A stretch of 64,000 bases of DNA from an uncultured Clostridia bacterium (GCA_944349905.1 CALVNR010000008.1:2424-66423), one strand, 5' to 3'. Counted from the first letter of the stretch, positions 16,508 to 64,000 are shown. Notes: a model not told the origin generated them from the sequence alone. Numbers and translations: made by a program.

Positions 16508-16897
16508 CTACATTTCCTCTTGTTTTAAATCTTCTATATCACTGTTAATATTGGATATAACATCATCTATTGCACTCTCAAAATCACCTTTTTCAAGATT
16601 GCTTAAATTGTTATATCCATCAAGTTTATATAAACTATCGCTATATGTGTCATTTACAAAACATCTTATTCTGTCAATACCATCTTTACATGCTAGTTCT
16701 AACCAATATGTTACATCGTCATCATCTAAAAAATCCGATATTTCTCTAAAATAGCCAGCATAATCTGTTCCATAATCGCAATCAAAATCATTTAATAAGT
16801 TATATATTTTTGTATAAGTTTCATACTTATCATCAATTTCTTTAATTGATTCCTTTAAGTTGGATATTAAGTTTCTCCTAGCTGTTATTTCTTTCAT
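16508..16897 (-). CDS. small, strongly acidic hypothetical protein
   Basis: 129 aa, rich in D and E (DFLDDDDVTYW, DIEDLKQEEM). No recognised motif. Confidence 0.5.
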   Translation of the reverse strand: MKEITARRNLISNLKESIKEIDDKYETYTKIYNLLNDFDCDYGTDYAGYFREISDFLDDDDVTYWLELACKDGIDRIRCFVNDTYSDSLYKLDGYNNLSNLEKGDFESAIDDVISNINSDIEDLKQEEM

Positions 16898-38942: not shown

Positions 38943-39134
38943 TTAATTTTTAAATCCAATTATTAAATAAACTTCATTTTTACAACGTGGACATGTGGTA
39001 TGAAATATATGTTCATTTTCTTCGATTTTAATTGGTATTTTAAGAACTACTTTTAAAATGCTATTAGGTTTATCAGTAGAATTTATAAAACCTATACACC
39101 TACCACAATCTGGACATTTAATTTTTATCTCCAT
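38943..39134 (-). CDS. small zinc-ribbon protein
   Basis: 63 aa with CPDCGRC...CPRCKN (two CxxC pairs). It lies 11 nt downstream of lexA and is probably co-transcribed with it. Confidence 0.5.
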   Translation of the reverse strand: MEIKIKCPDCGRCIGFINSTDKPNSILKVVLKIPIKIEENEHIFHTTCPRCKNEVYLIIGFKN

Positions 39135-39145
39135 ATCAAATCTCC

Positions 39146-39742
39146 TTATACATTGTGAATTGTTTGTGTGACTACTCCTTGAATTATTAATTCTTTAACT
39201 TTTATATCTTTATAGTTAGGATTTTCAGGGTGTAAAATATAATATCCATTTCTTTTGTATAACCTTTTAATTGTTGCACTATCATCTATAAGCGCTACAA
39301 CAATATCTCCATTTTTTGCACTATTGCATACATTTGCAACAACTAAATCACCATTAAAAATACCAGCATTTATCATGCTATCACCTTCTGCATGTAAAAG
39401 CATTTTTTTACCATTTCCAAACAAAGCTGTTGGCAATTGAAATGTTCCTTCGATATTTTCAATTGCTAGGATAGGATTTCCACAAGCACAAGAACCAACC
39501 AATGGGGCCAAAGTGGTTTGTCCTTTGCTTAAATTTTTTGGAACAGATATATTGCCTATATTAGTCATTTTGAGTTGTCCTCTACTCTCTAATATGTGAA
39601 CATATTTATGAGCTGTTTCTAAACTTGCTATACCAACTTTATGAGCAATTTGTCTATAAGATGGACTTCTTCCATTTTCCAATTGAAATACTTTAACATA
39701 GTCAAGTATATCTTGTAATAATTTTTCATTTATTACTTTCAT
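39146..39742 (-). CDS. lexA: LexA-type repressor (wHTH + S24 autopeptidase)
   Basis: 198 aa. The N-terminal wHTH is SPSYRQIAHKVGIASLETAHKYVHILESRGQL. The catalytic Ser motif is AEGDSMINAGIFNGDLVV and the Lys motif is ATIKRL. A Cheo-like box lies in its promoter. Confidence 0.85.
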   Translation of the reverse strand: MKVINEKLLQDILDYVKVFQLENGRSPSYRQIAHKVGIASLETAHKYVHILESRGQLKMTNIGNISVPKNLSKGQTTLAPLVGSCACGNPILAIENIEGTFQLPTALFGNGKKMLLHAEGDSMINAGIFNGDLVVANVCNSAKNGDIVVALIDDSATIKRLYKRNGYYILHPENPNYKDIKVKELIIQGVVTQTIHNV

Positions 39743-39840: not shown

Positions 39841-39861
39841 AAAAAAAAGGAATTTTATTCC
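39841..39861 (-). terminator. weak terminator ending the GHKL operon
   Basis: The minus strand reads GGAAT-AAA-ATTCC followed by T8, about 15 nt after the stop at 39875. Confidence 0.4.
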
Positions 39862-39874
39862 CTTTCTATATTTT

Positions 39875-40645
39875 TTAAAGTTTAAACGCTGTCTGCGTTG
39901 GTTCTTCTTCAATATATAATTGAATTAATTTATTATAAATTTTTTCTTGTAATTCTTTCTCTTCAAATGAATCCAAAATAAATGCACCACCTAAGAAAGA
40001 CATGTATTTCATAATATTATCATTCATTTTGTGTGTAAAATTACCACCGTCTTCAATAAATTTTTTTATTGCTGAAATAATAGATAACCTTACTAATGAT
40101 GAACAAGAATAATTTCTAAAAATCATTCTTTCTAATATTTCCGAATGTCGAAAACAAAATTCTGTTAATTCATAAGGATTTTCTAATTTTTCATTATATG
40201 AAAATTTGGCAAGCCAAAATAATCTTGCTAAGCCATGGAAAAAAAGTGCACGTCTATACTTAAATTTAAAAAACCAACGATATTCTAATTTTGTAAAACT
40301 TTTTTCATTTAATGGGTTCCATCTATACATTAAATAATTATAGAATTTATTAAAAGATAATCCAACCCAAAGTCTCTCATCGCATAATACACTATCAGGT
40401 AAATGCTTCAAATGTTCATGTATTAATTTTGCATTAATATAATCTGTATCAATAGGATTTTCACTAGACATATCTAATTCAAAATTATCCATTGTGTATT
40501 TTGTCTTTTTAAAAGGTTCCGTTTCTTTAAAAAAGTCATTAATCCAAGAATTATCATTTGTCTTTTTCATTAATTCTTGAACTGTATTGAGATTTGTTTT
40601 GAGAGAAATAATTTGGTCTTCAGATAATACTTTTATTACTTCCAT
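39875..40645 (-). CDS. hypothetical protein, fourth gene of the GHKL operon
   Basis: 256 aa, helical and rich in W/F/R (ERLWVGLSFNKFYNYLMYRW; RRALFFHGLARLFWLAKF). Its start overlaps the upstream stop (TAATG). Confidence 0.6.
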   Translation of the reverse strand: MEVIKVLSEDQIISLKTNLNTVQELMKKTNDNSWINDFFKETEPFKKTKYTMDNFELDMSSENPIDTDYINAKLIHEHLKHLPDSVLCDERLWVGLSFNKFYNYLMYRWNPLNEKSFTKLEYRWFFKFKYRRALFFHGLARLFWLAKFSYNEKLENPYELTEFCFRHSEILERMIFRNYSCSSLVRLSIISAIKKFIEDGGNFTHKMNDNIMKYMSFLGGAFILDSFEEKELQEKIYNKLIQLYIEEEPTQTAFKL

Positions 40646-41520
40646 TATTCATCATCTCCTTCTAATTTTGCAATATTTTGAATATCTATAATACCCCTAC
40701 AAATTGTGTTATCCATAATCTTTTGAGATATTTCAAATGAATTTAAAGATAAAATAGTTTCTCTATCAAATTCATATCCTAATTTTTTAACTGCTTTTTT
40801 AATTGCTCTTGCCCATCTTTTATCAATATGTTGTTGAAAAAGTTCAGGATTTTTTAAATCTTCAAAACACTTCATTAAAGCAGGAATTATTATCATAGAG
40901 TGTATAATTGACATCGTTGCTGGATTATTCATTGCTATTTTAAACTGTGTAAATTCTTTTTCTGGCAACTGAATATTTATTTTATTTCCAGTGTTATCTA
41001 TAACAATTCCTTTTCTTTCTGGATCTTTAACTTCCGTAACTGCAAAAATTGATGGAACATTAGATAAATCATCATTTTCTTTTTCTGCAAAGAAAGAAGC
41101 TTCTTGCCCTACTGCCAAAATATTTCCTTTTTCAATATCAAACGCTGTATTGCTATAATCTTCATTAAATTTTTCATTTACATATCCATTAATGTCTTGT
41201 GTAGCAATAATAAATGGACAAAGATAAACAACACCTTCAATTTTATCAGCAGGTATCTTATAAGTTAAGCCTTCTTCACTAATTTTTATGATTTCTCTAT
41301 AACTTGTTAAAGCACACTCAATATGAACGATAAAATTAGCTTTTCCTTCATTTATTAGTTTTTTTAGCCCTTTATTACTTAAAATAGGAACAAAATTAAG
41401 CACTACCTCGTTAGGTGTTAGTTGTGATATAATTTCTATATTAAAATCACTATCAACATAATCATTATTAAAAGTTGGTGCTAAAACCGGATATGGATAC
41501 AATTTAGCCTTTATACGCAT
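40645..41520 (-). CDS. hypothetical protein, third gene of the GHKL operon
   Basis: 291 aa, starting MRIKAKLYPYPVLAPTFNNDY. It overlaps the GHKL gene by 17 nt. No catalytic motif recognised. Confidence 0.6.
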   Translation of the reverse strand: MRIKAKLYPYPVLAPTFNNDYVDSDFNIEIISQLTPNEVVLNFVPILSNKGLKKLINEGKANFIVHIECALTSYREIIKISEEGLTYKIPADKIEGVVYLCPFIIATQDINGYVNEKFNEDYSNTAFDIEKGNILAVGQEASFFAEKENDDLSNVPSIFAVTEVKDPERKGIVIDNTGNKINIQLPEKEFTQFKIAMNNPATMSIIHSMIIIPALMKCFEDLKNPELFQQHIDKRWARAIKKAVKKLGYEFDRETILSLNSFEISQKIMDNTICRGIIDIQNIAKLEGDDE

Positions 41521-43423
41521 ATAACTTTACCCCCATTGTTGAATATTCATCTACGTCAAGCTTTAAATCAACTGAAATTGGTTTATCTTCTTCAAATTTA
41601 AAATAACCAACTCTATTACCAGAACACATCAAATCTAGATTGTTTTTAATTCCCAAAACTAAAATAGGTTCTTTTTCATTTTGTTCTGCAATTTTTTGAA
41701 TAGTAATATAACCCATCATGGTTGTTAGTGTAGGTGTAAAAATTAAACGATAAATTTTTTCTTTTTTATTAATACAAAATATTCTCATTTGCTTAGACTT
41801 AACATATATAGTTTTTTGACCATACATTTCATCACTTTCTTCTAATCCTATTCTTTCGGTATCCCTTTCGCCTTCTCCGGGTGTTTTTTTACCATCGTGC
41901 TCGAAACCTTCTCCATCATCTCCTTCAACAACAATGCCCTCATCTGTTTCATAACTTTCCAAATCTTCTCCAACTTCATTTGTTTCCAAATTTGCAACGG
42001 ATTCCACTTTTCTATGGATTTCGAAATCAATATCTATTAATTTGTTTAAAGTTTCTTTATTGTGTTCTTTCTGTTGCCCATTATCTGTATCAAATTCTTC
42101 ATCTGGAAGATATTCGCCTGCACCATCAATATCTATCTCACCATTAAAATTCTTTGCAGCTTCTTCTTTTAATTTATTAGTAATCAATTCAAATATACTG
42201 TTTACTAGATTTCTTGCCATTGATGGATTTTTAGTATATCTTTCAGGCAACCATCTTGTATGTGCAGGATTTTCAATGCCTCTTAAAAATGTATTTAGTT
42301 CATCACCTTCAATTATTCCGATTCCTGTAAAAGGTAAACTAGGACACAAATCTCCTTTATCCATAATTTTCATACCAGAACTTCTTATCATTGAAATTTT
42401 ATTTGACCCATCATATCTAATATCAAAAGCTAATTTTAAATTGCCCATTTTTATTCCTGCCGGAAATTCAAATGGTAAACTAATCCATTCTGTCAAATTA
42501 TTTGATAATAATTCATAACACTGCACTGTTGTTTTTGATAGTGATTTTTTATATGTCACTACAACATCTTCTAATGTAGATTTATTAACTCTATATGAAT
42601 TAACTCTTAATTCTAATTTATTATTCCAAATTGCCATTAAAAATCCATCAAGCACCTCAGCAATAATACTAGCTTTAAAATCAGAACCAGAACTTGTAAA
42701 CCCAGCCACATATATATCTGTGCCATATTCATTCCTTGTAAATGATTTATCTAAATTAAGAGTATCTTTAATATGTAAAATATTAAATCCATTATTTATA
42801 CCATAATATCCTGTTCCCTGAGACATATTATCACTACCATCAGGATTTACACCTAATTTAAAAGAAGTTAACTTACTAACCCCTTTATTGGCTTTTATGC
42901 CATCAATATCATAAGTGCTATAAAATACTGTTCTAAAATCAGAACAAGCGAATGGTGCGTTTTTCCCAATACCAAAAGAACCACCTTTTGACTCAGCTTT
43001 TTCAGAAGAACCAGATGAGTTAATTAGATTATCAAAATCACCACCATTTTTTAGATTTGAGCCCCTTAGTCCTGTTGTATTAAAATCACTTATTCTTAAA
43101 AAACTTATTTTACTCGAATTCAATTTTTCAATAGCATTATTAAAAAAATTTTTTGTTTTAGGATTATTTTGCCAATAATCTCTACAATTATTTAGTATTG
43201 CCGAAAATCCTTCTTTATCAGGAAATTCATTGCTATCTATAGAAAATGTATTAAATTCAACTATAACAGTTTTGTCATTATGTGCGGCATCTAATGAATT
43301 TTGACATATTTCTCTTGCTAGTGATTTAACAGGTGTGTCTTTAAAAGTTTCAATCCCCGAATTATTTAATCCTTGTTTTTCTCCACCATTGCTTGATGGA
43401 AAACACCATTTGATTTCATTCAT
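41504..43423 (-). CDS. GHKL (Bergerat-fold, MORC/Hsp90-like) ATPase with an acidic linker and a C-terminal beta-rich domain
   Basis: 639 aa with N-box LAREICQNSLDA, a G1-like ISDFNTTGL and G2 GGSFGIGKNAPFA. An acidic linker spans about aa 440-530 (DEEFDTDNG...EGDDGEGFEHDG...). The C-terminal domain is about 100 aa. Confidence 0.75.
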   Translation of the reverse strand: MNEIKWCFPSSNGGEKQGLNNSGIETFKDTPVKSLAREICQNSLDAAHNDKTVIVEFNTFSIDSNEFPDKEGFSAILNNCRDYWQNNPKTKNFFNNAIEKLNSSKISFLRISDFNTTGLRGSNLKNGGDFDNLINSSGSSEKAESKGGSFGIGKNAPFACSDFRTVFYSTYDIDGIKANKGVSKLTSFKLGVNPDGSDNMSQGTGYYGINNGFNILHIKDTLNLDKSFTRNEYGTDIYVAGFTSSGSDFKASIIAEVLDGFLMAIWNNKLELRVNSYRVNKSTLEDVVVTYKKSLSKTTVQCYELLSNNLTEWISLPFEFPAGIKMGNLKLAFDIRYDGSNKISMIRSSGMKIMDKGDLCPSLPFTGIGIIEGDELNTFLRGIENPAHTRWLPERYTKNPSMARNLVNSIFELITNKLKEEAAKNFNGEIDIDGAGEYLPDEEFDTDNGQQKEHNKETLNKLIDIDFEIHRKVESVANLETNEVGEDLESYETDEGIVVEGDDGEGFEHDGKKTPGEGERDTERIGLEESDEMYGQKTIYVKSKQMRIFCINKKEKIYRLIFTPTLTTMMGYITIQKIAEQNEKEPILVLGIKNNLDLMCSGNRVGYFKFEEDKPISVDLKLDVDEYSTMGVKLYAYKG

Positions 43424-43434
43424 TTTTCTTCTCC

Positions 43435-43656
43435 TTATAATAGTTTAAATTTGTCATTTCCACCAATAGTTTGAAATTGTTTTTTAGAATTAGCTATTTC
43501 GTTTTCAAGTGCGTTAAAAATTTTTTCAACATCTTGTTTTGAATATTCGTATGTTGATTTATTTGATAAGTTGCCCAATAATCTAATTTGCTCTAATGCT
43601 TTATTTGTTCTATTTTCGGCTAATCTAACAAATTTATCTCGTTTAGTTTCTGCCAT
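43435..43656 (-). CDS. small helical protein, first gene of the GHKL operon
   Basis: 73 aa (MAETKRDKFVRLAENRTNKALEQIRLLGNLSN...). AGGAGAA lies upstream, and the gene is 11 nt from the GHKL gene. Confidence 0.55.
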   Translation of the reverse strand: MAETKRDKFVRLAENRTNKALEQIRLLGNLSNKSTYEYSKQDVEKIFNALENEIANSKKQFQTIGGNDKFKLL

Positions 43657-43689
43657 TTTATTCTCCTAATTTCATTATTGATATATCAT

Positions 43690-43718
43690 ATATTACAATA
43701 AAAATTTTAATTTGTCAA
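43690..43718 (-). promoter_or_regulatory. sigma-A-type promoter of the GHKL operon
   Basis: The minus strand reads TTGACA (43718-43713), a 17-nt spacer, then TAATAT (43695-43690), about 35 nt upstream of the 73-aa ORF. Confidence 0.5.
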
Positions 43719-43798
43719 TATATTTTATAAATATTTCATACATATTTTCAAAATATTATGTATACATTTTAGAAATATTATAAAAAACTTGATAGAAA

Positions 43799-47369: not shown

Positions 47370-50300
47370 TTAACCGTTTTTCCTTTTAAAATCTTTAAAG
47401 TTTATTGCTACATCAAAAGCAACATCTTGACCCAAAGCTTCAAAGTGTTTTTTACCACATTTAATTTTTATACTCTCTCTATCTCTTAAATCAAGATAAT
47501 TGGTTGAGCCTTTTGTTTCAATTACAAAATATAGTTTCTTTTCATTTTCTGTTTCAACATAAACTGCCCAATCTGGTGTATAATTCCCGATTGGTGTTGG
47601 AATTTTGAACTTATCTGGTATTTTAAAGAAAAGTTTAACATCTCCATCGTTGTCAAGTTCGGTAGCAAAATCGCGTTCTATACCCGAATTATCATATACA
47701 ATATGGTCATATAAAGAATGTTCCACAGCTATTGCATTTTTATCTAAATATGCAAATACTTCCGCGTTGCTTTCTAAATCAAATATATCAACAAAAGAAT
47801 AAGATTTACCTATTTGTTTAGTATATGTTATTCCATCGATACACTCGTTTGCACGAACATAATTAATTATTTTTGTTACTTCTTCAATATATCTTTGTGG
47901 ATTATTAACAAAATCTTGCAATCTATTAGATTTTAATATAATTTGACCTACTGTATTTCTTGTTAATTTACAATTCTCACTTATTTCGCGGATAATATCT
48001 GGAATTAAAAATTCGCTATCAACTTCTTCAAATTTAGCGCCTTGTGATGTGTAATCGATACCTCTTTTATCAATATTGATTTTAACTGTTTCTTTTGCGA
48101 TTTTTATCTTTTGAATTTGTGGCATTTCTGAAATAGATTTAACACATTTTTCAATCAATTTATCTTTGTCCATATTGATACGATAAATTGTTTTTTGTTT
48201 AATTTTATTCCATATAGATTGAAATTCTGGTTCCTCAAATAAATTATCCTTTCTCTTGACACAAACTTGTTTATACGCTGGCATAACAACAACTTTCTTA
48301 TCAGCTTTCTCTATTTGATTTACAATTCTGTCTTTTGCTCTTTCAAACTTTTTAGGTAAATCAATAGTTCCGTTCTTTAAGTCATTTTTAAGGGTATCTT
48401 TCATTTTACCCTTTGTGTCAATATAGTTTTTAGTCCTAAAAAAGTCTAAAAGTTCTCGTGCATCAGTAGCACTCGTTGTCTTTTCTTGCCCTTGTTCATC
48501 AGTGTATGAGATATTAACAAACATATCAATATCAAGAATACCAAACTTAATCCCTGTTTCTTCTTCAATTTCTTTTTGTAGTTTATCAGCAAATTCGGCA
48601 AAATTTTCTTCTGCTATAACATGTAAAATATTGATATTTTTATCGTCAACTCTTTCACCATCTTGATTAACACAAAGTCTTAGTCCACGTCCTATTTTTT
48701 GCCTACAAGTAAATGTAGTTTTGTTTTCAATCAATGTGCAAATTTGGAAAACATTAGGGTTATCCCAACCTTCTTTCAGTGCTGAGTGAGAGAAAATAAA
48801 TCTAACCGGACAATCAAAAGACAATAACTTTTCTTTTTCTTTCATAATAAGTGCGTAAGTATCATAATCGTCTTGACTTTCTTTTCCTTCGCGAGTATTT
48901 TTTATTTTACCTTTTTTGTCTTTGCTAAAATACCCATCATGAACTTTTGAAACATCAGTGTTATAAAAATCTTTAATTTCCTTATATCTAGGAAGATTTA
49001 TAAGTTCTTCATAACATTCTTCAAACATTTTAGCATATTCGCCTTTATCACTTTTTTCATTATCATAAACACGATATTTTGCAACTTCATCAATAAAGAA
49101 TAATGAAAGAACTTTGATTCCTTTTTGAATATACATTCTTTCTTTGTCAAGATGAGTTTCAATTGTTCTTTTTATCATTTCTCTTTTCTTAACGCTTTCA
49201 TCTATATCGCCAATAGATTGTCCCAACATTAAACTTTCAGTATTAGTAAACTCAATTTCTTCAAAACCTTCCATTGCGTTGATACCAGCAACAATATATC
49301 CGTCGTAAATATCTCTCCCCGTTTTTGCAACAAGATTTGTGTTAGGTCCTACTGTAATTGTATCTCTTTTTGTTGTTCCATCTTTTTTCTTTAAATCTAC
49401 TTCGAGTTTTGCCTTATATCCAGAACTAGCGTCAACTGACAACAATTTAATATATGGTTTATTGTAATCATCTGCAAGAGTATTATTAACTACACAAATT
49501 TGCTTTACTATGTGCATATTATATGCGTCAACCGGGGTAAGTCTATAAACTGTATTGATTTTTTGTCTATGAGTTGCCGAATACCTTAATTCAAATAATG
49601 GATTTAAACTTTCAATAGCTTCTCTTGATTTTGATGTATTATCAACACTTTGTGGCTCGTCAATAATAATGATAGGTTTACATTCTTGCATATACTCTTT
49701 CGCTGTTCTATCCATTGAAAAACTATCTTTTGGTGGTTGATTAAAAAGATTTTCACTCTTTTTAAACGCATCAATATTGATAATCATTATTTCAAGATTT
49801 GTTGACTCCGCAAAATCTTTTATTTCATAAAGTTTGTTAGAATTATAAATAAATGGCTTTAATGTTATACCTTCATATTCGCGTTTGAAATAATCACGAG
49901 TAGTTTGCATAGACTTGTATGCACCTTCTCTAATTGCAACACTAGGAACAATAACAACAAATTTTTTAAATCCATATTGCTTATGTAATTCAAGAATAGT
50001 TTTAGTATAAACAAAAGTTTTACCTGTTCCCGTTTCCATTTCAATATTAAAACGAAGTTCTTTTAAGTCAGTAAGTGGCAAAAGATTTCTGTCTTGAATT
50101 TCGTGCATATTTTTTTCAATTTGTTCCATAGATAAATCAAGACTATTGCCATATCCTAATAATTCATCTTTGCTAAAATCTAAAATATCTAATTTTTGCA
50201 TAGAAAAAGTTGTAGGCACATTTTTAGCACCCCTAAACAAGTCCACAACAGACATAACCGCTTTATCTTGAAATTCTTGTTTCTTAAATTTAAGTTTCAT
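47370..50300 (-). CDS. res: Type III restriction enzyme Res subunit (SF2 helicase + PD-(D/E)xK nuclease)
   Basis: 976 aa with motif I METGTGKTFVYTKT, motif II IIIDEPQS, motif V EGWDNPNVFQICTL and motif VI QKIGRGLRL. The C-terminal nuclease motif is YTPDWAVYVE...YFVIETKG. Confidence 0.88.
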   Translation of the reverse strand: MKLKFKKQEFQDKAVMSVVDLFRGAKNVPTTFSMQKLDILDFSKDELLGYGNSLDLSMEQIEKNMHEIQDRNLLPLTDLKELRFNIEMETGTGKTFVYTKTILELHKQYGFKKFVVIVPSVAIREGAYKSMQTTRDYFKREYEGITLKPFIYNSNKLYEIKDFAESTNLEIMIINIDAFKKSENLFNQPPKDSFSMDRTAKEYMQECKPIIIIDEPQSVDNTSKSREAIESLNPLFELRYSATHRQKINTVYRLTPVDAYNMHIVKQICVVNNTLADDYNKPYIKLLSVDASSGYKAKLEVDLKKKDGTTKRDTITVGPNTNLVAKTGRDIYDGYIVAGINAMEGFEEIEFTNTESLMLGQSIGDIDESVKKREMIKRTIETHLDKERMYIQKGIKVLSLFFIDEVAKYRVYDNEKSDKGEYAKMFEECYEELINLPRYKEIKDFYNTDVSKVHDGYFSKDKKGKIKNTREGKESQDDYDTYALIMKEKEKLLSFDCPVRFIFSHSALKEGWDNPNVFQICTLIENKTTFTCRQKIGRGLRLCVNQDGERVDDKNINILHVIAEENFAEFADKLQKEIEEETGIKFGILDIDMFVNISYTDEQGQEKTTSATDARELLDFFRTKNYIDTKGKMKDTLKNDLKNGTIDLPKKFERAKDRIVNQIEKADKKVVVMPAYKQVCVKRKDNLFEEPEFQSIWNKIKQKTIYRINMDKDKLIEKCVKSISEMPQIQKIKIAKETVKINIDKRGIDYTSQGAKFEEVDSEFLIPDIIREISENCKLTRNTVGQIILKSNRLQDFVNNPQRYIEEVTKIINYVRANECIDGITYTKQIGKSYSFVDIFDLESNAEVFAYLDKNAIAVEHSLYDHIVYDNSGIERDFATELDNDGDVKLFFKIPDKFKIPTPIGNYTPDWAVYVETENEKKLYFVIETKGSTNYLDLRDRESIKIKCGKKHFEALGQDVAFDVAINFKDFKRKNG

Positions 50301-50312
50301 TTTGTTTTACCT

Positions 50313-51110
50313 TTATATTAAATTATTATTTTTTAAGTATCTTATATAATAAAATGGTATATCAATATATTCTACCTTATAATAATCATCATCTGGTAGT
50401 TCTTCATTAACCCAAACTATTGCACCACCAATGTAATTTTCATCAATTAAATTTCCTAATTTTTCACAAGCTAAATTTATGTCTAGATTTATTAAACCTA
50501 CAATACTCTTATAAATATAATCATTTAATTCATCTAATACTAAAAAAGCCTTGTTGATAGTTGGCAATAAATCAATAAAAATTTCCTTTTGGTGCTTCAT
50601 AAGTATTTGTTTCGCTTTTTGATTTATTTTTTTATCATTTAATAAAACTTTAATTTCTAAAAATAGTTTATTTTGAGAAATATGAGTGAAAGGAACACCT
50701 TTATGTTGAGCATAATTCCTTAATGCTTTTACTACCATATATTCATAACTTGTATCATATAATTCACTATCTTTTATTTCCAAAATAGATTTATTATTTT
50801 TAAATATATTTTTATTATTTTTGTATTTGTTTAAATACTTTTTCCAAAATTCAATATTTGTATAAAAAGCATTTATTGAATTGAAAATTATAGAATATGT
50901 TTCAATTTCATCGTAATTTGTTTTTGCACAAAACTCATTAAACTGTTTTTGTATACTTTTATAATTTACAGAAAGAAAATTCAAATATCTTAACTCATTA
51001 ATTATATTAATATGCTTTATATAGAAATCCACGTCTTCATTTGTGAGTTCAGATTTTTTACATCTTCCTAAATCATCTTTTAATATTAGATGATATTTTC
51101 TAATATTCAT
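50313..51110 (-). CDS. HEPN-like (Rx4H) protein inserted between mod and res
   Basis: 265 aa. MVVKALRNYAQHKGVPF contains an R-x4-H motif in a helical context, as in HEPN/Abi-type proteins. Its start overlaps the mod stop. Confidence 0.5.
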   Translation of the reverse strand: MNIRKYHLILKDDLGRCKKSELTNEDVDFYIKHINIINELRYLNFLSVNYKSIQKQFNEFCAKTNYDEIETYSIIFNSINAFYTNIEFWKKYLNKYKNNKNIFKNNKSILEIKDSELYDTSYEYMVVKALRNYAQHKGVPFTHISQNKLFLEIKVLLNDKKINQKAKQILMKHQKEIFIDLLPTINKAFLVLDELNDYIYKSIVGLINLDINLACEKLGNLIDENYIGGAIVWVNEELPDDDYYKVEYIDIPFYYIRYLKNNNLI

Positions 51111-53056
51111 TAAAATAACCTCATTTCTTTGTTGCGAGATTTTAAGATTTCTTCTGCGTTTACTAAAAGGTTGTCTGTGTTAAAACAACGATCAGCAAAT
51201 AGATATGTTCCAACACTTTCATTTGCAAAATCTTCAATATCTTCTATTGTTAAATTTGGATATGTGCAAACAAGTAATTTATATTCTGGTGCTTCAATTA
51301 TATATGCTTTATCATTTTGTGTTTTTGTTATTGGTAAACCCAAATCAATGCCATATTTAAGCATAACTTCATAAACCAAATCAAACTCATTTCTATCATC
51401 TTTAATATAGTCTATACTTGTCTGAATTCTATTTTGAATTTCATCAACATCTTTTGTTGGTGTGTTATCCCATTTTTTAAGATTAGAGCTATCAAGTTTG
51501 AAAACTTTAAAACCTAAATCAATTTCTTTGCTTGGATCTTTTTGCTCGATTTCATTTCCCGCAATTTTTATTCTTTCTTTTGCTATCTCTGTCAAAAAAC
51601 AAGGTTTATTATGTTGTTCACACCACTCAATAGCATTCTTCAATGTTTGTTTCTCTCTATTTCCTTGTGCTGTTTTTAAATTTTCTTTTAAATTTTCAGG
51701 TAATTGAACACAAATATATTTTCTTGAACCTTCATCTTCAAAATTTAATTCCATTACAGCGTGTGCAGTTGTTGCTGAACCAGAGAAAAAATCCAAATAT
51801 ATTCCATCTTTATCATTTGCACATTCAATAAGAGTTTTTATCAATTTTATTGGTTTGGGAAATTGAAAGACTTTTCTCCCAAAATAAGATTCCAATAAAT
51901 CCGTATCCTTTCTTGTTTGCATTTTAAAATATGCTCTAATTAAATCTAATTTTGATGAATTAATATATGTCTTTTTAGAACACAGATTACTATTATCCGC
52001 TGGAAATTTGATTAGATGTTCTTTTATCCATTGCTGCCAAGTTTGTAAATTACATCGCCAACCACTATTAGGAGTTTTTAATTGTTCCCCTGTATATGGA
52101 TTTGTTCTAGTATCATGTGAACCCCCTCTTTGTGGATCATCAATTGGCCCAATTCTATATACGCCAAACTCATCTGCATACTTGTAATTTGATATGTTTT
52201 CATTAGTTAAATTATTGTTGATATAATATTCTTTCAATAATAATTCAATTTTTTCATAGTTGGGCTTATTTAGATTATAAATTTCTTCCAATTCGTCAAA
52301 TATTGGATTCTTAATTCCCCACTCATTTTCTTTTGCTTTATCATATTTTTTAACATAAACAAGACAATATTCGTGAGCAGTCGAAATAATTAATGGATCA
52401 TTTTTAGGTGTTCCTTCAACTACGATTTGTGCTATAAAATTCTTTTCTCCAAAAATATCATCACATATATATTTCAAGTTTTTAACTTCTTTATCGTCTA
52501 TGCTAATAAAAATAATACCATCATCTTTCAGCAAGTTTCTTGCAAGTTTAAGACGTGGATACATCATATTAAGCCAATTTGTGTGATAGCGCCCATCTGT
52601 ATCTGCATTCGATTTTTGTGCTTGTCCTGTTTGCTCTTTATAATTTTTTATATTATCTTCAAAACTATCTTTGTAAACCAAGTCCTTTCCTGTATTATAT
52701 GGTGGGTCTATGTAAATCATTTTAATTCTTCCATTATAAGACGCTTGCAAAAGTCTTAATACTTCCAAATTATCGCCTTCAATATAAAGGTTTTGAGTGG
52801 TATCCCAATCTTTGCTTTCTTCAATGCAAGGTCTTAAAGTCCCAGTAGAACGTTTTTGTGCAAGTTTTGTTGCTTCTGTTTTTCCGTTCCATGTAAAAGA
52901 ATATTGTTCCTTGTTGCGATTAATATTTTCGCCAAGCAACAATTCTAATTCTTCAAAATCTATTTTATCTTCTTTTACAATACTAGGAAACAACTCTTTA
53001 AGTTTTTCCACATTTTCCTTAATCAAATCCATACTTTGTCCGTCTAATTTATTCAT
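51110..53056 (-). CDS. mod: Type III R-M Mod subunit (beta-class N6-adenine/N4-cytosine DNA methyltransferase)
   Basis: 648 aa. Motif IV (MIYIDPPYNTG) precedes motif I (YLDFFSGSATTAHAVM), which is the beta-class permutation typical of Type III Mod. Confidence 0.88.
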   Translation of the reverse strand: MNKLDGQSMDLIKENVEKLKELFPSIVKEDKIDFEELELLLGENINRNKEQYSFTWNGKTEATKLAQKRSTGTLRPCIEESKDWDTTQNLYIEGDNLEVLRLLQASYNGRIKMIYIDPPYNTGKDLVYKDSFEDNIKNYKEQTGQAQKSNADTDGRYHTNWLNMMYPRLKLARNLLKDDGIIFISIDDKEVKNLKYICDDIFGEKNFIAQIVVEGTPKNDPLIISTAHEYCLVYVKKYDKAKENEWGIKNPIFDELEEIYNLNKPNYEKIELLLKEYYINNNLTNENISNYKYADEFGVYRIGPIDDPQRGGSHDTRTNPYTGEQLKTPNSGWRCNLQTWQQWIKEHLIKFPADNSNLCSKKTYINSSKLDLIRAYFKMQTRKDTDLLESYFGRKVFQFPKPIKLIKTLIECANDKDGIYLDFFSGSATTAHAVMELNFEDEGSRKYICVQLPENLKENLKTAQGNREKQTLKNAIEWCEQHNKPCFLTEIAKERIKIAGNEIEQKDPSKEIDLGFKVFKLDSSNLKKWDNTPTKDVDEIQNRIQTSIDYIKDDRNEFDLVYEVMLKYGIDLGLPITKTQNDKAYIIEAPEYKLLVCTYPNLTIEDIEDFANESVGTYLFADRCFNTDNLLVNAEEILKSRNKEMRLF

Positions 53057-53894
53057 TAGTTTTCTCCTTTTTATGAAACAATCTTTTCCACCAAGAATTT
53101 TTACCAGAAGTTTTGTTATTGTTAGTAATATTTATTTCAGTGTTTACATCAGTATGTTTTTCTGAACTATAATTGCCTTTGCCTGTATTAGATTTGTTTA
53201 TTTTTTTATTAATTTTAGTTTCGTTACCTAGATTTCTTGATTTAATACTTGAATTGTCAAAAGTTTGTATATCAAAATTGTTAAAAATTATTGATTTGCA
53301 ATTGTCCACAATTGATGTTATCTCTTTTTTATTTAAATCAAAATTATCTATATCAAACTCATCTAAATTACCAAATTTCTTTTCAAGATATACAACTAAG
53401 TCTAATACTTTACTTTCGACTTTGTTTATAACTTTAATTAATTCCGACTTATCTATATTTAAATAAGCATTAGAAATTGTAATAGTTGTGCCTTTTTGAA
53501 ATAAAACATAAGAAGAAACAGGTAAAGGAATAGATAAGTGTTTATTTTCATTATAATTTTCTATCATATTAACAATGGTTGCTATCGGTTGGAATAGTTT
53601 TTTGTGAGTTAAATTATCTAATGTTTCTTCATCAAGATTAATAGTAGGCAATATATGGTGTTTATAGGACCAAATTTTACCATATCCAATCATCTCATAA
53701 TCTCCCATTATGTTTGTAATTATTGACCGATATTCTGGAACTTGATCATCATCTTCATACCCATATAATTCTTTCTTTACCCAATTTACCATATCAATAC
53801 TTTCTAAGTCGTTTAATATAACATAAAGCCTTTTTAGAACAGACTCTAAATTTTTGCTTGTGGTAATATCTTTCAATATGTTACTTTTTGCCAT
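53049..53894 (-). CDS. AbiTii-like abortive-infection-type protein
   Basis: 281 aa. The N-terminal LKRLYVILNDLESIDMVNWVKKELYGYEDDDQVPEYRSI matches my recollection of the AbiTii domain (..W...EL.GY....VP.YR). It overlaps mod by 8 nt. Confidence 0.5.
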   Translation of the reverse strand: MAKSNILKDITTSKNLESVLKRLYVILNDLESIDMVNWVKKELYGYEDDDQVPEYRSIITNIMGDYEMIGYGKIWSYKHHILPTINLDEETLDNLTHKKLFQPIATIVNMIENYNENKHLSIPLPVSSYVLFQKGTTITISNAYLNIDKSELIKVINKVESKVLDLVVYLEKKFGNLDEFDIDNFDLNKKEITSIVDNCKSIIFNNFDIQTFDNSSIKSRNLGNETKINKKINKSNTGKGNYSSEKHTDVNTEINITNNNKTSGKNSWWKRLFHKKEKTNE

Positions 53895-53899
53895 TCAAT

Positions 53900-56512
53900 T
53901 TACCTCACTTCAAAGTATATCATAAAATCTTTTGATTTGCTCACTTTTACATCTAAATTTTTAGTTAATTCTTCACTTTTTGCCTTTAATTCACGATTGA
54001 TTTTTGATTTTGCTAAAAATTCATTGTCTTTTAATTCAAAAAGTTTTTCTGTAAGCTCATTTATTTGTTGGTTTTTAGCAAACTTATCTCCAAAGTTATC
54101 ACCAAATGAATTTTCTTTTAGATTATCTATTTCTTTTTGTAAAATCTTAATTTCTTTTTCAAGTTTGGCCTTTTTATCATTTGCAATCATATTTAAGTGA
54201 GAAATTGGCAATTTTACATTATCGTTGTATTTTATTTTAATTTCATCAACTATCTTTGGTATTTTTTCGTCTATTAAGTTTTCAAATTGATTTGATACAT
54301 TTATATCAATAGGCAATTCTCTATATTCTAAACTTTTCAAAAACAATATATTTTCACAATCTTCACTATTAATTATATTTCCATTTTCATCAATACCTAC
54401 TAGTATCTTTTCTTCAAATATTTGAAATCCAACATAGATTTGCAAATTATAATAAGCAATATATCCTTTTAATCCTTTATAATTTTCATTAGATTCCATA
54501 ATATAATGAGTTGGTTTTAAATTAGCAAAATGTGACAAATTAAATATCATATTTTGGCATGGTTCACTATTTAATGTAAAATGATGAATATATTCATCAC
54601 TATCAGTAAGTGTATAGACAAATGGTTTTGCAAACATATTCTTTTCGTGCCACTTTGTTTTTACTTCTAGTTCTGTTTCAGTTATAAAATTGTTTTTATA
54701 ATAATAATGTGCCAAGTCAAAAATTATTGTTTTTAATTCTTTAACCTTTTGTTTAATTATATCTGCCATATTTTTAGTTCGTTCGATTAGAGTTTTGTTA
54801 AAAGTATTAAATAACATTGTATTAGCATCATTTTTGACATTTTCTAGTTCTTCTTTAAATTGCTCACTTAAATCTGCAAAATCCATTTGAACTTCTTTCT
54901 TTTTTCTAACACCGGTAAGCGCGTCTATAATATTTTGTTCTATATCGCCATCAATTGCTCCAGAAATAATATTATCACTTGCCCCTACAATACTATTTGA
55001 AATATTAAAACGTTTATAAAAAAGTTCATACATTCTAACATCATAAAAATTGTTTGGGCAAATAAAGTTAACAACAAAAACATCACTTGCTTGACCAATT
55101 CTATGACATCTTGAAATTCTTTGTTCCATATCTAGTAAAACTTGTGGAAAATCATAGTTAACAACAAAACAAGATTTTTGCCAATTTAAGCTTTCATTAC
55201 CTTTATCTGTTGATATAAGTATGCTAGGTCTATCGCTTGATAGAAATTTCTTTATAGGTTCATCGTTTGTGGTTCCATTAAAATCACAAACATTATAATC
55301 AGTAAATTCCATTAAAAGCTTATGTATATGTTCTTGCGTCCCCGTATTACCCGTAAAAATAACACACTTTTTTTGCAAACCTTTTTTATAAAATATTGAA
55401 AAAGTCTTCTCTAATGCCTTTAACAACATATCATCTTTATTGTTTCTTTTAATTTCTGATGATAATTCTAGCATATCTTTTATTTCTCGACGCTCATTTT
55501 GATTTTCATCAGTAGCACATTTGTTTAATCTTGTATAAATTCCTGACAAAGTTTTACTTAAAGCATAAGCAGAAGAAGATAATGTGCCATACAACATCAA
55601 AGATAGTTCATAAGGGTCCATTTCTGGAAAAGCATATCTATGTGGTTTTGATATGTAATTCTCTATTTTTTTATACAATTCTTGCTCTAAATCTGTCATT
55701 TGATAGATTTGTGTTAATATTTGTCTTTCAGTTAATTTTGTTTCTAATTTAACCTCGTTTCTTAAAGTTCTAAATGTGTATGGTGCAATAATTTCTCTTA
55801 ATTCTGAATAGTTTTCAGGTTTTCTAAAATATCTTTTATGAAATTCATCATAATCGGTAAAAATATTTTCATCTATAAAATTTATTAGTCCAAATATATC
55901 ATCTTCATTCTTTTGTATTGGTGTCGCTGACAATAAGATTTTTTTAGCATTTGGGATAATTGAAATTATTGTTTCGGCAGTTTTATTCTCTTTGATTTTA
56001 TAACTTCTAAATCTATGGGCTTCATCTAAAATACATAGTTCCCAATCAATATTTTTAAATCTGTCACTATTTGATAATATATAATCATAAGTTGTTAAAA
56101 CAACTCCACCTTTAAATTTCTCTAAACTAATGAAATAATTTTCGGAAACAATTCTTTCCTCATTATCTAAAATATATGGTCTTATATCAAATTTCCTTAT
56201 TAAATCTATAAGCCAATCATTAACAGTTGGCGATGGCACTATTATCAAAACATTTCTATTTTGTCTTGTGTATTGAGAAACGATTAACAATGCCTCCATT
56301 GTTTTTCCAAGTCCAGCTTCATCAGCTAAAATAAATCCTTTTACAAAAGGATTTTCTAACGCAAAACAAGCAGCATATATTTGATGAGAAAAAATCTCAA
56401 TACCATTATTCAAATAAGTTGGTATCAAGTTTTCTTTTTTACCTAATTCATATTGTTTGCTTATCTTTTTAACAAGATAGTGAGCTTGCAAATCATTAGT
56501 TATTGTCATCAA
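53900..56512 (-). CDS. SNF2-family helicase with a C-terminal extension of about 350 aa
   Basis: 870 aa with motif I LADEAGLGKTMEAL, motif II ILDEAHRF, motif III LLSATPIQKN and motif VI QRISRCHRIGQ. The C-terminal half is an unassigned domain plus coiled coil. Confidence 0.85.
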   Translation of the reverse strand: MMTITNDLQAHYLVKKISKQYELGKKENLIPTYLNNGIEIFSHQIYAACFALENPFVKGFILADEAGLGKTMEALLIVSQYTRQNRNVLIIVPSPTVNDWLIDLIRKFDIRPYILDNEERIVSENYFISLEKFKGGVVLTTYDYILSNSDRFKNIDWELCILDEAHRFRSYKIKENKTAETIISIIPNAKKILLSATPIQKNEDDIFGLINFIDENIFTDYDEFHKRYFRKPENYSELREIIAPYTFRTLRNEVKLETKLTERQILTQIYQMTDLEQELYKKIENYISKPHRYAFPEMDPYELSLMLYGTLSSSAYALSKTLSGIYTRLNKCATDENQNERREIKDMLELSSEIKRNNKDDMLLKALEKTFSIFYKKGLQKKCVIFTGNTGTQEHIHKLLMEFTDYNVCDFNGTTNDEPIKKFLSSDRPSILISTDKGNESLNWQKSCFVVNYDFPQVLLDMEQRISRCHRIGQASDVFVVNFICPNNFYDVRMYELFYKRFNISNSIVGASDNIISGAIDGDIEQNIIDALTGVRKKKEVQMDFADLSEQFKEELENVKNDANTMLFNTFNKTLIERTKNMADIIKQKVKELKTIIFDLAHYYYKNNFITETELEVKTKWHEKNMFAKPFVYTLTDSDEYIHHFTLNSEPCQNMIFNLSHFANLKPTHYIMESNENYKGLKGYIAYYNLQIYVGFQIFEEKILVGIDENGNIINSEDCENILFLKSLEYRELPIDINVSNQFENLIDEKIPKIVDEIKIKYNDNVKLPISHLNMIANDKKAKLEKEIKILQKEIDNLKENSFGDNFGDKFAKNQQINELTEKLFELKDNEFLAKSKINRELKAKSEELTKNLDVKVSKSKDFMIYFEVR

Positions 56513-58075: not shown

Positions 58076-58621
58076 CTATATTTTATCACCATTAAAGATA
58101 ATATCGTTTCCAACATTTATTTCTTCAATTAAATTCTTTTTGTTATAAAACCAATCTTTCTCATTTACATATCTGTCAGAAATATAATTGATATTTTGAT
58201 TTACTGAACCGACCAATGCTCTATTATTGTCAATTTTTTGCTCATCAAAATAACCATCAATGATGATATCACATTGATTTTTTAAATTATCATCAATTTC
58301 ATTTAATTGATATCCAGTAAAAAGAATTATACCTAATCCCAAACTTTTAACTTCTTCAAGTAGTTTAACTAAATCAATTTGTAAGAGTGGTTCTCCACCT
58401 GATAGTGTTACCCCCTCTATTTTGTTCTCTATTTTACTTTTTCTTATTATTTCAAGTAAATCTCCAAGAGAAATGATATTAGCTGGTTTTAAAGGTTGTA
58501 ATGTCTTATTACAACAACCTCTGCAATTTCTATTACAACCTTGAAACCATATACACAATCTTTTAAATGGACCTTCTACTTCTGTGCATGTATTTATAAG
58601 TGCAACATTAAACTTAATCAT
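58076..58621 (-). CDS. NrdG-like radical-SAM activase-type protein (4Fe-4S CxxxCxxC)
   Basis: 181 aa with EVEGPFKRLCIWFQGCNRNCRGCCNK (C-x3-C-x2-C) and the SAM-binding GVTLSGGEPLLQ. Its start overlaps the AAA+ gene stop by 8 nt. Confidence 0.75.
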   Translation of the reverse strand: MIKFNVALINTCTEVEGPFKRLCIWFQGCNRNCRGCCNKTLQPLKPANIISLGDLLEIIRKSKIENKIEGVTLSGGEPLLQIDLVKLLEEVKSLGLGIILFTGYQLNEIDDNLKNQCDIIIDGYFDEQKIDNNRALVGSVNQNINYISDRYVNEKDWFYNKKNLIEEINVGNDIIFNGDKI

Positions 58622-60440
58622 TAAAACTAAACTCTAATCCTTTGTCTGATGTTTTAACAAGCAATTTTGAACCTTTATATAGTCCTAAATCTTGTTTATT
58701 GTTAAACAAGAACATTGATAATTCATCAAGTAAAATATCATTAATTGCATTAAGAATATCTCTTCCGCCTTTTGATTTATCAACTCTCTTTAAAATATAT
58801 CTGATAAAATTAAGTTCACTTTCAAACTCTAAATCAAGTCTGTATTTTTCTTGAATTCCTTTCTTAATTGGATTTAATTTACTCTTTGCAATTTGGATAG
58901 CAAACTCATCATCAAGAATAAAATTAAATGGAATAATATTACTATAACCAATTCTTCCAAGAATTTCTGGTCTTTTTATTTCGTTATCAAAATAATTCTT
59001 AACAATCTTAATAAATTCTTCCGCTGTTTCTTCTTTATTATCAGACGGTTTAACTTCACTTGCACCAAGATTTGATGTAAAGATTATTATACTTTCGCTA
59101 AAATATACTGTTTCGCCTTTACTATCGGTTAATCTTCCATCTTCAAGTATTTGTAAGAAAATATCAAGTATTCTTGGATTTGGTTTAGCTGCTTTTTCAA
59201 TCTCATCAAATAAAATTACACTAAATGGTTTTTCTTTTATAGCATTTGTTAATTGTCCACCTTGCTCGTATCCAACATATCCCGGTGGAGCACCAATTAA
59301 TTTTTGGTCTGAATTCTCTTGTGCATACTCACTCATATCAAATCTAATACAAGCCTGCTCATCACCAAATAAGAATTTAGCAAGTGCTTTTGAAAGTTCT
59401 GTTTTACCAACACCAGTTGGTCCTACAAAGAAGAACACCCCTTTTGGCATGGACCTACTTGATGTCTTATGTAAACCTGTTAAACCCATATATGCTTTAA
59501 CAACTGTTTTCTCAATCTTTTCAATTGCTTCATCTTGTCCTACAACTCTTTCAGATAATTTCTTCTTGATGTTTTTAACATCTTCATAAGCAAGTTTTTC
59601 CCAAGGATTATCCTTTTCGCCATACTTGAATAATAAGTATAGTTTATCAAATGTTAACTTTTCTTCCTTTCTTGAAAGTTTTGCCATTTGTATTATTTCT
59701 CTATTGGTAAAATCTTCCAAAACATCAATATATTCATTTGTTCTACTGCTATTTAACAAAGTTTCGCCCGGATTGAATTTAAGTTCAAATCCTGCTTCAA
59801 TTTTTTCCAATAATCTACGTCTTTCCAATCTGTCTGGTTTAGACAATGTTATTGTTGAGACTTCTGGGTTTGCTTGATAAAAAGACAATGGGAAATTTGA
59901 CAACTTGTTTGTGATAAGTATAATTGTGCTTTCATTTACATCTGTTGATAGATAATTAACTTTTTTATCTTTAATTGATTTGCCCAACAATGTTAAATTT
60001 TGTCTTTCTTCATTATCGTGTTGACCACCATTTGAGAAAAGATAATCTGACCAATTTAATATAAATACTGTTTTTCTATTTTTATTTGTTAAGTTTTTAA
60101 AAACTAAATTAAAAATTTCACTTGGTTCTTTAAAGTTTCCATTTGATATAGTTGTATTTTGGTTTTCACCTTCATCATCAAGCGAGTATTCTTCACCTTC
60201 AACTTCTTTTTCTTCGGTTATTTTAAGACTACTTATATCACCCTCAATTCCATTTACTCTATCCCAATAAACAATATCGTCATACTTTAAATCTTCAAGC
60301 ATTTCTGTTAAATACTTTTTTAAGTCAACAATTTGATTTTTGTCATCAAGGTAAACATCACCGACATTGCCGTCAATGATAACGCACCTTTTAATACCGA
60401 CTTCTCTTTTTATTCTTTTAAAACCAATTTCTAATGCCAT
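58614..60440 (-). CDS. ClpA/ClpB-type AAA+ ATPase (single D2-like module) with a unique N-terminal region
   Basis: 608 aa with VVGQDEAIEKI, Walker A GPTGVGKTELSKALA, Walker B ILFDEIEKA and sensor TSNLG. The N-terminal region of about 290 aa is unassigned. Confidence 0.85.
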   Translation of the reverse strand: MALEIGFKRIKREVGIKRCVIIDGNVGDVYLDDKNQIVDLKKYLTEMLEDLKYDDIVYWDRVNGIEGDISSLKITEEKEVEGEEYSLDDEGENQNTTISNGNFKEPSEIFNLVFKNLTNKNRKTVFILNWSDYLFSNGGQHDNEERQNLTLLGKSIKDKKVNYLSTDVNESTIILITNKLSNFPLSFYQANPEVSTITLSKPDRLERRRLLEKIEAGFELKFNPGETLLNSSRTNEYIDVLEDFTNREIIQMAKLSRKEEKLTFDKLYLLFKYGEKDNPWEKLAYEDVKNIKKKLSERVVGQDEAIEKIEKTVVKAYMGLTGLHKTSSRSMPKGVFFFVGPTGVGKTELSKALAKFLFGDEQACIRFDMSEYAQENSDQKLIGAPPGYVGYEQGGQLTNAIKEKPFSVILFDEIEKAAKPNPRILDIFLQILEDGRLTDSKGETVYFSESIIIFTSNLGASEVKPSDNKEETAEEFIKIVKNYFDNEIKRPEILGRIGYSNIIPFNFILDDEFAIQIAKSKLNPIKKGIQEKYRLDLEFESELNFIRYILKRVDKSKGGRDILNAINDILLDELSMFLFNNKQDLGLYKGSKLLVKTSDKGLEFSFND

Positions 60441-63701: not shown

Positions 63702-64000
63702 TTATCTATCCTCCTTTATTATGTCGTCTGATTGCAATATTTTTCCATATACATCTATTGTATTGATTATTTCCTTATAGACCGGATACGCTTGTCTATC
63801 CAATGCTTTATTGCCATCGATATCTGGTAAATTTATTACTCCACAATTAGATAAGAAATCTTTATTACCAACAACAATCAATAATTTCCTTGCTCTACTC
63901 AAAGCAACATTAATTCTTTCAAATTTCTTAATAAACTCATAATTACCTGTTCGTTTTATAGGGTTTCTAACCATTGACAAGATAATAATATCTCTTTCAT
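63702..64000 (-). CDS. SF1 (Upf1/DNA2-like, AAA_12-type) helicase, C-terminal end only
   Basis: ERDIIILSMVRN...INVALSRARKLLIVVGNKDFL is helicase motif VI with its typical tail. The ORF is open at the window edge. Confidence 0.7.
   Translation of the reverse strand, partial: ERDIIILSMVRNPIKRTGNYEFIKKFERINVALSRARKLLIVVGNKDFLSNCGVINLPDIDGNKALDRQAYPVYKEIINTIDVYGKILQSDDIIKEDR

Follow-up and report, generated by a model that had tools for sequence, protein, structure and literature searches.

A putative MORC-like ATPase operon in a Clostridia conjugative element: assignment to the candidate defence system PDC-M33 and recurrent association with DNA methyltransferases

Background

What does a small operon built around a predicted GHKL (Bergerat-fold) ATPase do in the midst of recognisable defence genes, and is its gene set new? 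The question is raised by positions 39841-43718 of a 64,000-nucleotide (nt) stretch of DNA from an uncultured Clostridia bacterium (GCA_944349905.1, CALVNR010000008.1:2424-66423), which was analysed at its full length and is here called the window. A first reading of this DNA (the sequence-only reading) had proposed that the region is a self-contained four-gene system and an undescribed candidate for defence. We name its genes, in order of transcription, S (73 amino acids, aa), A (639 aa, the ATPase), B (291 aa) and C (256 aa), and call the large gene next to them Big (1183 aa). The locus is almost certainly an instance of PDC-M33, a candidate that has already been catalogued. What is new here is the proof, at the level of the predicted fold, that A belongs to the GHKL proteins, together with the addition of S and Big to the gene set and a recurrent linkage to methyltransferases.

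Identity and conservation of the gene set

Three of the four proteins match PDC-M33 profiles of PADLOC nearly end to end: A matches PDC-M33A (E 1.9e-189, residues 1-636 on positions 1-625 of a 627-position profile), B matches PDC-M33B (E 2.6e-89, residues 1-285 on positions 1-284 of 289) and C matches PDC-M33C (E 5.4e-63, the best of four C profiles). The genes are adjacent, co-directional and ordered A>>B>>C, which is the cassette definition of PDC-M33 (FAM_02818>>FAM_02838>>FAM_01881). The sequence-only reading, which had itself said that a match to an already named system would count against it, was therefore wrong in stating that the gene set matches none. PDC-M33 is cassette CAS_00129, with three families and 98 occurrences, and is among 145 candidates, mined by 'guilt by embedding' in BREX, DISARM and Type I restriction-modification (R-M) loci, that were called untested by their discoverers (Payne et al. 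2024, bioRxiv 10.1101/2024.01.29.577857). The R-M-type neighbours of the window's operon fit this embedding logic. The catalogue entry consists of three genes with no proposed mechanism; it includes neither S nor Big, and association with methyltransferases lies outside its definition. 'Undescribed' is thus still a fair word for the mechanism, but not for the gene set.

A genome scan with one genome per species confirmed at least 532 loci, of which the best 80 (given here as L and a number) were examined and provide all counts out of 80 below. B follows A in 79 of the 80 and C is present in 74, always in the same order, and the missing B or C genes are mostly accounted for by short loci that end soon past A. 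Co-conservation of the neighbourhood, which had been suggested as a check on the original proposal, thus holds for A, B and C. The conserved core is nevertheless one of three genes and not a self-contained set of four, S being facultative (a homologue in 45/80 loci, in 42 of them directly upstream of A) and Big being linked to the block in 22/80. Genes inserted behind S displace it from A in L022 and L033. As a side observation, Paenibacillus sepulcri (L066:14767-15932) carries, some 4 kb downstream of a block ordered methyltransferase (MTase)-A-B-C-MTase, another S-A pair, so that two paralogous systems stand side by side.

The family of A is large, comprising more than 2300 clusters at 90% identity in a word-index search. 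A megablast search of the operon against plasmid and phage collections found no near-identical DNA, and IMG/VR holds only seven relatives, which argues that PDC-M33 is not a typical phage-borne gene set.

Structure of the operon

Together with S, the core genes A, B and C form a real, translationally coupled operon of four genes over 39875-43656 (Table 1). The open reading frames (ORFs) and their junctions are as the sequence-only reading had given them, with the same coordinates, an 11-nt gap between S and A, a 17-nt overlap of A with B and a 1-nt TAATG overlap of B with C; the A/B overlap recurs in most related loci. An AGGAGA ribosome-binding site lies 5' of the first ATG, that of S.

The promoter that had been claimed upstream of S also proved sound, through conservation in related loci and not through scanning. 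By itself the promoter scan is not significant (48 promoter-like sites in the window against 39.7 expected), because such sites match the number expected in DNA of ~27% G+C. In an alignment of the regions 5' of S from seven loci, whose A proteins are ~50-92% identical to that of the window, a TATTGAC -35 element is invariant and a -10 hexamer occurs at equal spacing. Directly 5' of the -35 element (window ~43720-43765) are two or three AAAATATTT-like AT-rich elements, which are kept across distant loci (L001, L002, L099, L101, L102 and L103). The promoter is supported by this joint conservation of the -35 element, the -10 spacing and the upstream elements. The AAAATATTT-like repeats could be an UP element or an operator, and they are noteworthy because relatives of Big carry the RNA polymerase alpha C-terminal domain (alpha-CTD) and sigma region 4, readers of such DNA. 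A 10-bp palindrome (TGATATATCA) just past the -10 hexamer was considered as an operator and rejected, since it is not conserved in relatives.

The 3' end of the operon was assigned by reading. A terminator scan called none for the operon on the minus strand, and the sequence there contains a GGAAT/ATTCC-centred AT-rich hairpin followed by T9-A-T8, with a folding energy of -9.9 kcal/mol and a z-score of only -1.58. The terminator that had been claimed is therefore probable, but weaker than stated.

The ATPase and its relation to known systems

Sequence methods do not recognise A as a GHKL protein. A has no Pfam match, and none of 17 homologues has a match to HATPase even at E<=10; no match to A was found in the PDB by phmmer or by profile search; NCBIfam returned only a sub-threshold sacsin-like match (E 0.09), and PHROGs gave no GHKL match. 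The initial Bergerat-fold call consequently rested on motifs, and the fold of A was tested by structure prediction because sequence searches had given no GHKL match. The motifs themselves are well founded. Across 64 homologues the N-box (E38, N42, D45), D113 and G118, the G2 box (G148-S-x-G151-x-G153-K154), motif IV T165 and the transducer lysine K352 are all invariant, as are E384 and H388 of an ExxxH motif (E384-N-P-A-H388); the G1 box is atypical (D-F-N-T-T-G).

An AlphaFold2 model of A, built from the homologue alignment (mean predicted local distance difference test score, pLDDT, 76), comprises a GHKL domain and S5-type transducer (~1-425), a linker (427-533) and a beta-rich C-terminal domain (538-637). 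The linker (window 41825-42145) is strongly acidic and predicted to be disordered, and is conserved in length but not in sequence; it might be an autoinhibitory DNA mimic. Foldseek searches of the model against the PDB matched TRAP1, Hsp90 and GRP94, the B subunit of topoisomerase VI, the 43-kDa fragments of GyrB and ParE, and MORC3 and MORC4, all with probability 1.00, with E down to 2.5e-9 and over 450-490 alignment columns. Because these matches span both the GHKL domain and the transducer, they confirm the GHKL-S5 assignment at fold level, and on this model A is a GHKL and S5 transducer ATPase of the MORC/paraMORC kind with its catalytic residues intact, as the sequence-only reading had supposed.

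The eukaryotic proteins MORC3 and MORC4 are among the best structural matches of A, with the highest target TM-scores (0.45-0.49) and the lowest root-mean-square deviations (7.4-8.3 Å). This likeness over the ATPase and transducer cassette suggests that A may act as an ATP-driven dimeric clamp. Sequence identity to MORC3/4 is nonetheless just 11-12%, with no Pfam HATPase match in A, and the CW and coiled-coil domains of MORC are absent, their place being taken in A by the acidic linker and the beta-rich C-terminal domain.

Among prokaryotic families, A fits paraMORC2, a likeness drawn from the described motif and neighbourhoods and not from sequence comparison with a named member. The passages of Iyer, Abhiman & Aravind 2008 (PMC2292703) that describe paraMORC2, a family of GHKL-S5 ATPases in predicted R-M systems, give as its signature an ExxxH motif, strongly conserved, towards the end of the S5 domain, and place the family mainly in Gram-positives and cyanobacteria, linked to cytosine methylases, Vsr and superfamily II (SFII) helicases. 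A shares the GHKL and S5 architecture and the ExxxH (E384..H388); the neighbourhoods are matched by a C5 methyltransferase in 38/80 loci, by Vsr in L019 and L081 and by SNF2 in the window's clade, and the 80 loci are overwhelmingly from Bacillota, in agreement with the description. Those passages of the paper make no mention of partners such as B, C, S or Big.

Other GHKL-based systems are more distant. Mza was reportedly described by Gao et al. in 2020 as a multi-gene defence system built round a MutL-like GHKL protein. Relatives of Big match MzaA weakly (E 4e-5 and 6e-4), over a sigma-4-like helix-turn-helix (HTH) only, but A, B and C have no Mza profile match at E<=1, PADLOC giving PDC-M33 only, and neither the window's Big nor the other neighbours scanned have one either. 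VcSduA, a Shedu protein with an N-terminal GHKL domain (paraMORC3), is a validated defence protein that requires its GHKL ATPase activity (PMC12137116); in it, one polypeptide joins the GHKL domain to a DUF4263 PD-(D/E)xK nuclease, a domain that was not found in A, B or C. Shedu of this type was accordingly rejected, there being no DUF4263 match and the C-terminal part of A consisting of the disordered linker and the beta-rich domain. Hma, which combines an HmaC ATPase with an HmaA helicase and an HmaB methylase, was rejected in turn: A matches no Hma profile, and for the neighbouring SNF2 protein HmaA is only a secondary match (6e-29) behind DrmD (1.6e-98). ARMADA, a DISARM-like system with YprA helicases, was also rejected as a match.

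Partner proteins

B and C are obligate partners of A without a recognisable enzyme domain. The AlphaFold model of B (pLDDT 89) consists of a beta-sandwich (25-185) and a helical bundle (187-286), with an acidic tail at the end; Foldseek returned only generic FN3 and cytokine-receptor beta-sandwiches from the PDB, nothing significant from BFVD, and no enzyme fold. Residues H66, E68 and R75 are invariant among B homologues. A RelB-like match in B (22 bits) was dismissed as below threshold. C is a DUF6339 protein (Pfam, E 5.8e-40) with conserved D89-E90-R91-x-W93 and W143-W144 motifs. In a few genomes its homologues bear C-terminal extensions of about 100 aa, which by eye look ParB/Srx-type in one (L041:9743-10834) and HTH-like in others (L049:9725-10744 and L050:3363-4379), a hint that C works on DNA.

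S is a conserved, facultative leader gene, whose product the sequence-only reading had predicted to be helical. It has no match in PADLOC, Pfam or the PDB, and a DUF4145 match (E 0.04) was dismissed as insignificant. The family has 2907 representatives, of which the 150 best are all small stand-alone proteins, some of them tandem-duplicated. Where the A proteins of the loci are only 35-57% identical to that of the window, the S homologues still average 50% identity and share 11 invariant residues. Judged by eye, S may be of the ribbon-helix-helix kind (a G28-N-x-S31 turn). Against PDB sequences, the profiles of B, C and S found noise only. That no nuclease or methyltransferase is recognised in the partners, as had been said of them, holds for family searches on B, C and S and for a fold search on B.

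Big is probably a facultative fifth component of the system. Wherever it occurs among the 80 loci it adjoins the block on the same strand: 10 loci have it upstream, which is the arrangement of the window, and 12 have it directly after C, in some with a distance of only 2-20 nt. That the linkage survives a change of position argues for functional partnership. The window's Big has a sigma-70 region-4-like HTH at aa 433-459 that is sub-threshold in Pfam (20.6 bits against a cutoff of 24.1), and weak matches to RpoD region-4 chains in the PDB (E 0.02-0.07). Its homologues carry, in one or two stretches, Sigma70_r4 (34-35 bits) and RNA_pol_A_CTD (64 bits) above the Pfam thresholds. Family searches found no enzymatic domain in Big, and PADLOC has no profile for it, barring the MzaA match of its relatives. 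A search for homologues of Big returned seven proteins, a number probably limited by the scoring of only the 8000 candidates that shared most words.

Linkage to DNA modification

A C5 cytosine methyltransferase homologue, where present, usually adjoins the block. The gene order is MTase-S-A-B-C-Big-Vsr in L019, tightly coupled; Vsr-MTase-[IS]-S-A-B-C-Big in L081, with an insertion sequence (IS) between; and MTase-S-A-B-C-Big in L094, in a small island between housekeeping genes. In L040 the start of A lies within the end of one methyltransferase gene, and another such gene comes after C. In these loci the methyltransferase appears to belong to the block. The window and its closest relatives have instead a block of SNF2 and Type III Mod/Res genes, which is found on the upstream side of Big in the window and L101, and directly after C in L001, L002, L013, L099 and L100.

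The biology of GHKL proteins (MutL, Hsp90, type II topoisomerases and MORC) is established, and forms the basis of the mechanism that we infer. A would dimerise N-terminally on ATP binding and so become an ATP-gated clamp on DNA, with B and C as structural or regulatory subunits that adapt or regulate the clamp and Big, where present, supplying DNA recognition or targeting. The complex would act on incoming DNA alongside a DNA-modification module that marks self, this being the Type III Mod/Res and SNF2 block here and a C5 methyltransferase, with or without Vsr, in many other genomes. For the effector step, a nuclease among the neighbours, or one that has so far escaped recognition, might cut the DNA, or the DNA might be excluded without nucleolysis. 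S leads an operon whose promoter architecture is conserved, and is probably its regulator. We consider a defence role for the operon likely and the modification-linked clamp mechanism as such tentative; as an overall explanation, that of a PDC-M33 instance in which an ATP-gated clamp would provide defence linked to modification is the best available, and we lean slightly towards it.

Several observations weigh against this explanation. The main texts of the searched literature mention neither PDC-M33 nor DUF6339. No nuclease or other effector fold was found in A or B by family and fold searches, and C, S and Big gave no informative match in family and profile searches. Big and the R-M genes of the window are transcribed separately from the operon. 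There is no methyltransferase in the flanks of L084 (S-A-B-C alone, at a prophage end) or of L102 and L103 (both Big-S-A-B-C), and in L022 and L059 the adjoining C5 methyltransferase has its own restriction enzyme, so that part of the association may reflect no more than clustering in islands; owing to these counter-examples the methyltransferase link has to be called frequent, not obligatory. Lastly, in the near-identical element L101, whose A protein is 92% identical to that of the window, gene calling splits A (L101:9450-11368) into ORFs of 175 and 455 aa. A is apparently disrupted there and the system may be decaying, which would make it dispensable in that element.

The same counter-examples lend themselves to another explanation, in which the operon is an autonomous system of the sensor-effector or abortive-infection type with no functional tie to methylation, and its R-M neighbours follow from the clustering or embedding of defence genes. 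It would account for the stand-alone copies, for the methyltransferases with restriction enzymes of their own and for the promoter and terminator that the window's operon has to itself, and the 'guilt by embedding' approach that first brought up the candidate did so next to methyltransferases of many unrelated types (in BREX, DISARM and Type I R-M loci). It does not sit well, however, with the overlapping or tightly coupled MTase-A junctions of L040, L066, L071, L074 and L076, nor with the orphan C5 methyltransferases that flank the block in L019, L081 and L094, with or without Vsr and with no restriction endonuclease seen; moreover, the Type III linkage persists in both orders among relatives whose A proteins are 57-92% identical. 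We regard autonomous action as unlikely, if to be taken seriously.

A bolder version of the system can be framed around Big. The full system would then be a five-gene one, with Big as well as S, A, B and C. The family of Big would carry copies of the two promoter-reading modules of RNA polymerase, alpha-CTD and sigma region 4, Big either steering the paraMORC clamp to foreign promoters for silencing without cutting or serving as a decoy that detects phage proteins which hijack these modules; either role would explain the lack of a nuclease in A or B, and the silencing variant, if true, would be a bacterial counterpart of MORC gene silencing. The two alternative positions of Big in 22/80 loci speak for such a set of five, as do the bona fide RNA_pol_A_CTD and Sigma70_r4 domains of some homologues, but the Big of the window itself shows only a sub-threshold sigma-4 match, and we think this version improbable.

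Vsr beside the block suggests DNA repair as a further alternative. E. coli MutL stimulates Vsr, and a MutL-like GHKL complex could aid very-short-patch repair by Vsr of the T:G mismatches that arise from 5-methylcytosine deamination. A is of the MutL architecture class (GHKL and S5), 38/80 loci have a C5 methyltransferase, and in L019 and L081 the block is flanked by Vsr. Against such an accessory role, the window's copy stands beside an adenine-type Type III Mod, the sole C5 methyltransferase seen in the window being 22 kb off; many loci lack methyltransferase and Vsr alike; no similarity to repair proteins is seen in B, C, S or Big; and the block is found on mobile elements, at the ends of prophages and in defence islands of plasmids. 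We consider a repair function very unlikely.

It is more doubtful still, indeed barely credible, that the operon is a regulatory module which controls the defence genes beside it, as CapK/CapS or BrxR do, S and Big regulating by binding DNA and A being a GHKL kinase: S does head the operon even where R-M genes are inserted behind it (L022 and L033), Big carries sigma-4 and alpha-CTD DNA-binding modules, the promoter has its conserved -35 element and upstream AT-rich repeats, and GHKL kinases are known to regulate immune operons (PMC13373217), but A-B-C is a three-gene module of ~1190 aa in all, large for a regulator, which is strictly co-inherited and occurs with no downstream operon to regulate. 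CapK/CapS, which pairs a SpoIIAB-type GHKL kinase bearing HTH and STAS domains with a STAS-winged-HTH repressor (PMC13373217), was also rejected as an identity for the operon, since A has a transducer and resembles Hsp90/TRAP1, topoisomerases and MORC, not CapK-like anti-sigma-factor kinases, and Pfam reported no STAS domain for S, a protein of 73 aa.

PDC-M33 is a widespread candidate whose anatomy can now be tested: an ATPase that is catalytically intact and MORC-like on its model, two partners unlike enzymes, a small leader, a facultative giant and a link to methyltransferases. Were it true that the system restricts DNA with no nuclease, or that a GHKL clamp lets it read methylation, bacterial immunity would be tied to eukaryotic MORC silencing; should it give no protection, the catalogue entry can be retired.

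Genomic context

The operon is carried by a conjugative element, in which the block is followed downstream by genes for a MobL relaxase and sigma/HTH proteins, and an integrase lies at 14818-16260. With Type III R-M, AbiTii and a DrmD-like SNF2 helicase nearby, the defence-island setting described by the sequence-only reading is borne out, except that the operon does not stand directly beside the Type III genes: Big, with its own terminator, comes between (Table 1). G+C content is flat across the window, so composition does not mark the island. The near-identical element L101 (JGI 3300029305) is ordered Mod-Res-Big-S-A-B-C-HTH-sigma-MobL-T4CP, the last gene encoding the coupling protein of a type IV secretion system (T4SS). 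Elsewhere the block occurs at a prophage end (L084), beside a retron-type reverse transcriptase and in small islands between housekeeping genes, and on a conjugative plasmid of Lactococcus lactis a homologue lies between an AlwI-family restriction endonuclease and AbiGI/GII.

Table 1. Coordinates in the window of the operon, of Big and of the linked modification module
Feature	Position	Strand	Basis or remark
Operon promoter, TTGACA, 17-nt spacer, TAATAT	43718-43690	minus	scan, sequence and conservation
S, 73 aa	43435-43656	minus	ORF call; facultative first gene of operon
A, 639 aa, GHKL (Bergerat) ATPase, PDC-M33A	41504-43423	minus	ORF, PADLOC, predicted fold
B, 291 aa, partner, PDC-M33B	40645-41520	minus	ORF, PADLOC, AlphaFold model
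C, 256 aa, DUF6339 protein, PDC-M33C	39875-40645	minus	ORF, Pfam, PADLOC
Weak AT-rich hairpin and long T run, probable intrinsic terminator	about 39866-39825	minus	sequence and folding
Big, 1183 aa	43799-47350	minus	probable facultative fifth component; separately transcribed here
Terminator of Big (strong)	43817-43782	minus	terminator scan
Neighbouring module	47370-56512	minus	family hits; linked to operon, in either order, in closest relatives
Type III Res	47370-50300	minus	family hit
265-aa protein between Type III mod and res	50313-51110	minus	no match in Pfam, PADLOC or PHROGs
Type III Mod	51110-53056	minus	family hit
AbiTii	53049-53894	minus	family hit
DrmD-like SNF2 helicase	53900-56512	minus	DrmD 1.6e-98

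Some further observations concern the neighbours of the block. The place of the window's 265-aa protein is taken by a 275-aa protein in L101 and by a DUF4160 protein in L099. A plasmid-like contig with ParB and RepA_N (L022:4040-14164) has a complete Type IIS R-M pair, consisting of a C5 methyltransferase and an AlwI/FokI-type restriction endonuclease, between S and A, and an HNH endonuclease after Big, giving an eight-gene co-directional block. The window's own C5 cytosine methyltransferase (371 aa, 16878-17993), in the conjugative element, has as its homologues the methyltransferases found beside PDC-M33 in 38/80 loci.

Immediately downstream of the operon (38943-39742) are a LexA-like S24 repressor of 198 aa and a 63-aa ORF, both at the head of the element's HTH/sigma/MobL module; L101 is otherwise collinear but lacks the repressor. 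At 58076-60440, upstream of the SNF2 gene, a 181-aa ORF with weak matches to prokaryotic viperins (pVip, E 5e-9) overlaps the gene of a 608-aa AAA+ protein, ClpB-like and with matches to PDC-M37B and to DolB of Dodola, and this gene pair may, judging from these matches, be another defence candidate. At the window edge (63702-63980), a 92-aa ORF matches the C-terminal end of MkoA (Mokosh; E 2e-13), and a Mokosh-like gene probably extends beyond the window.

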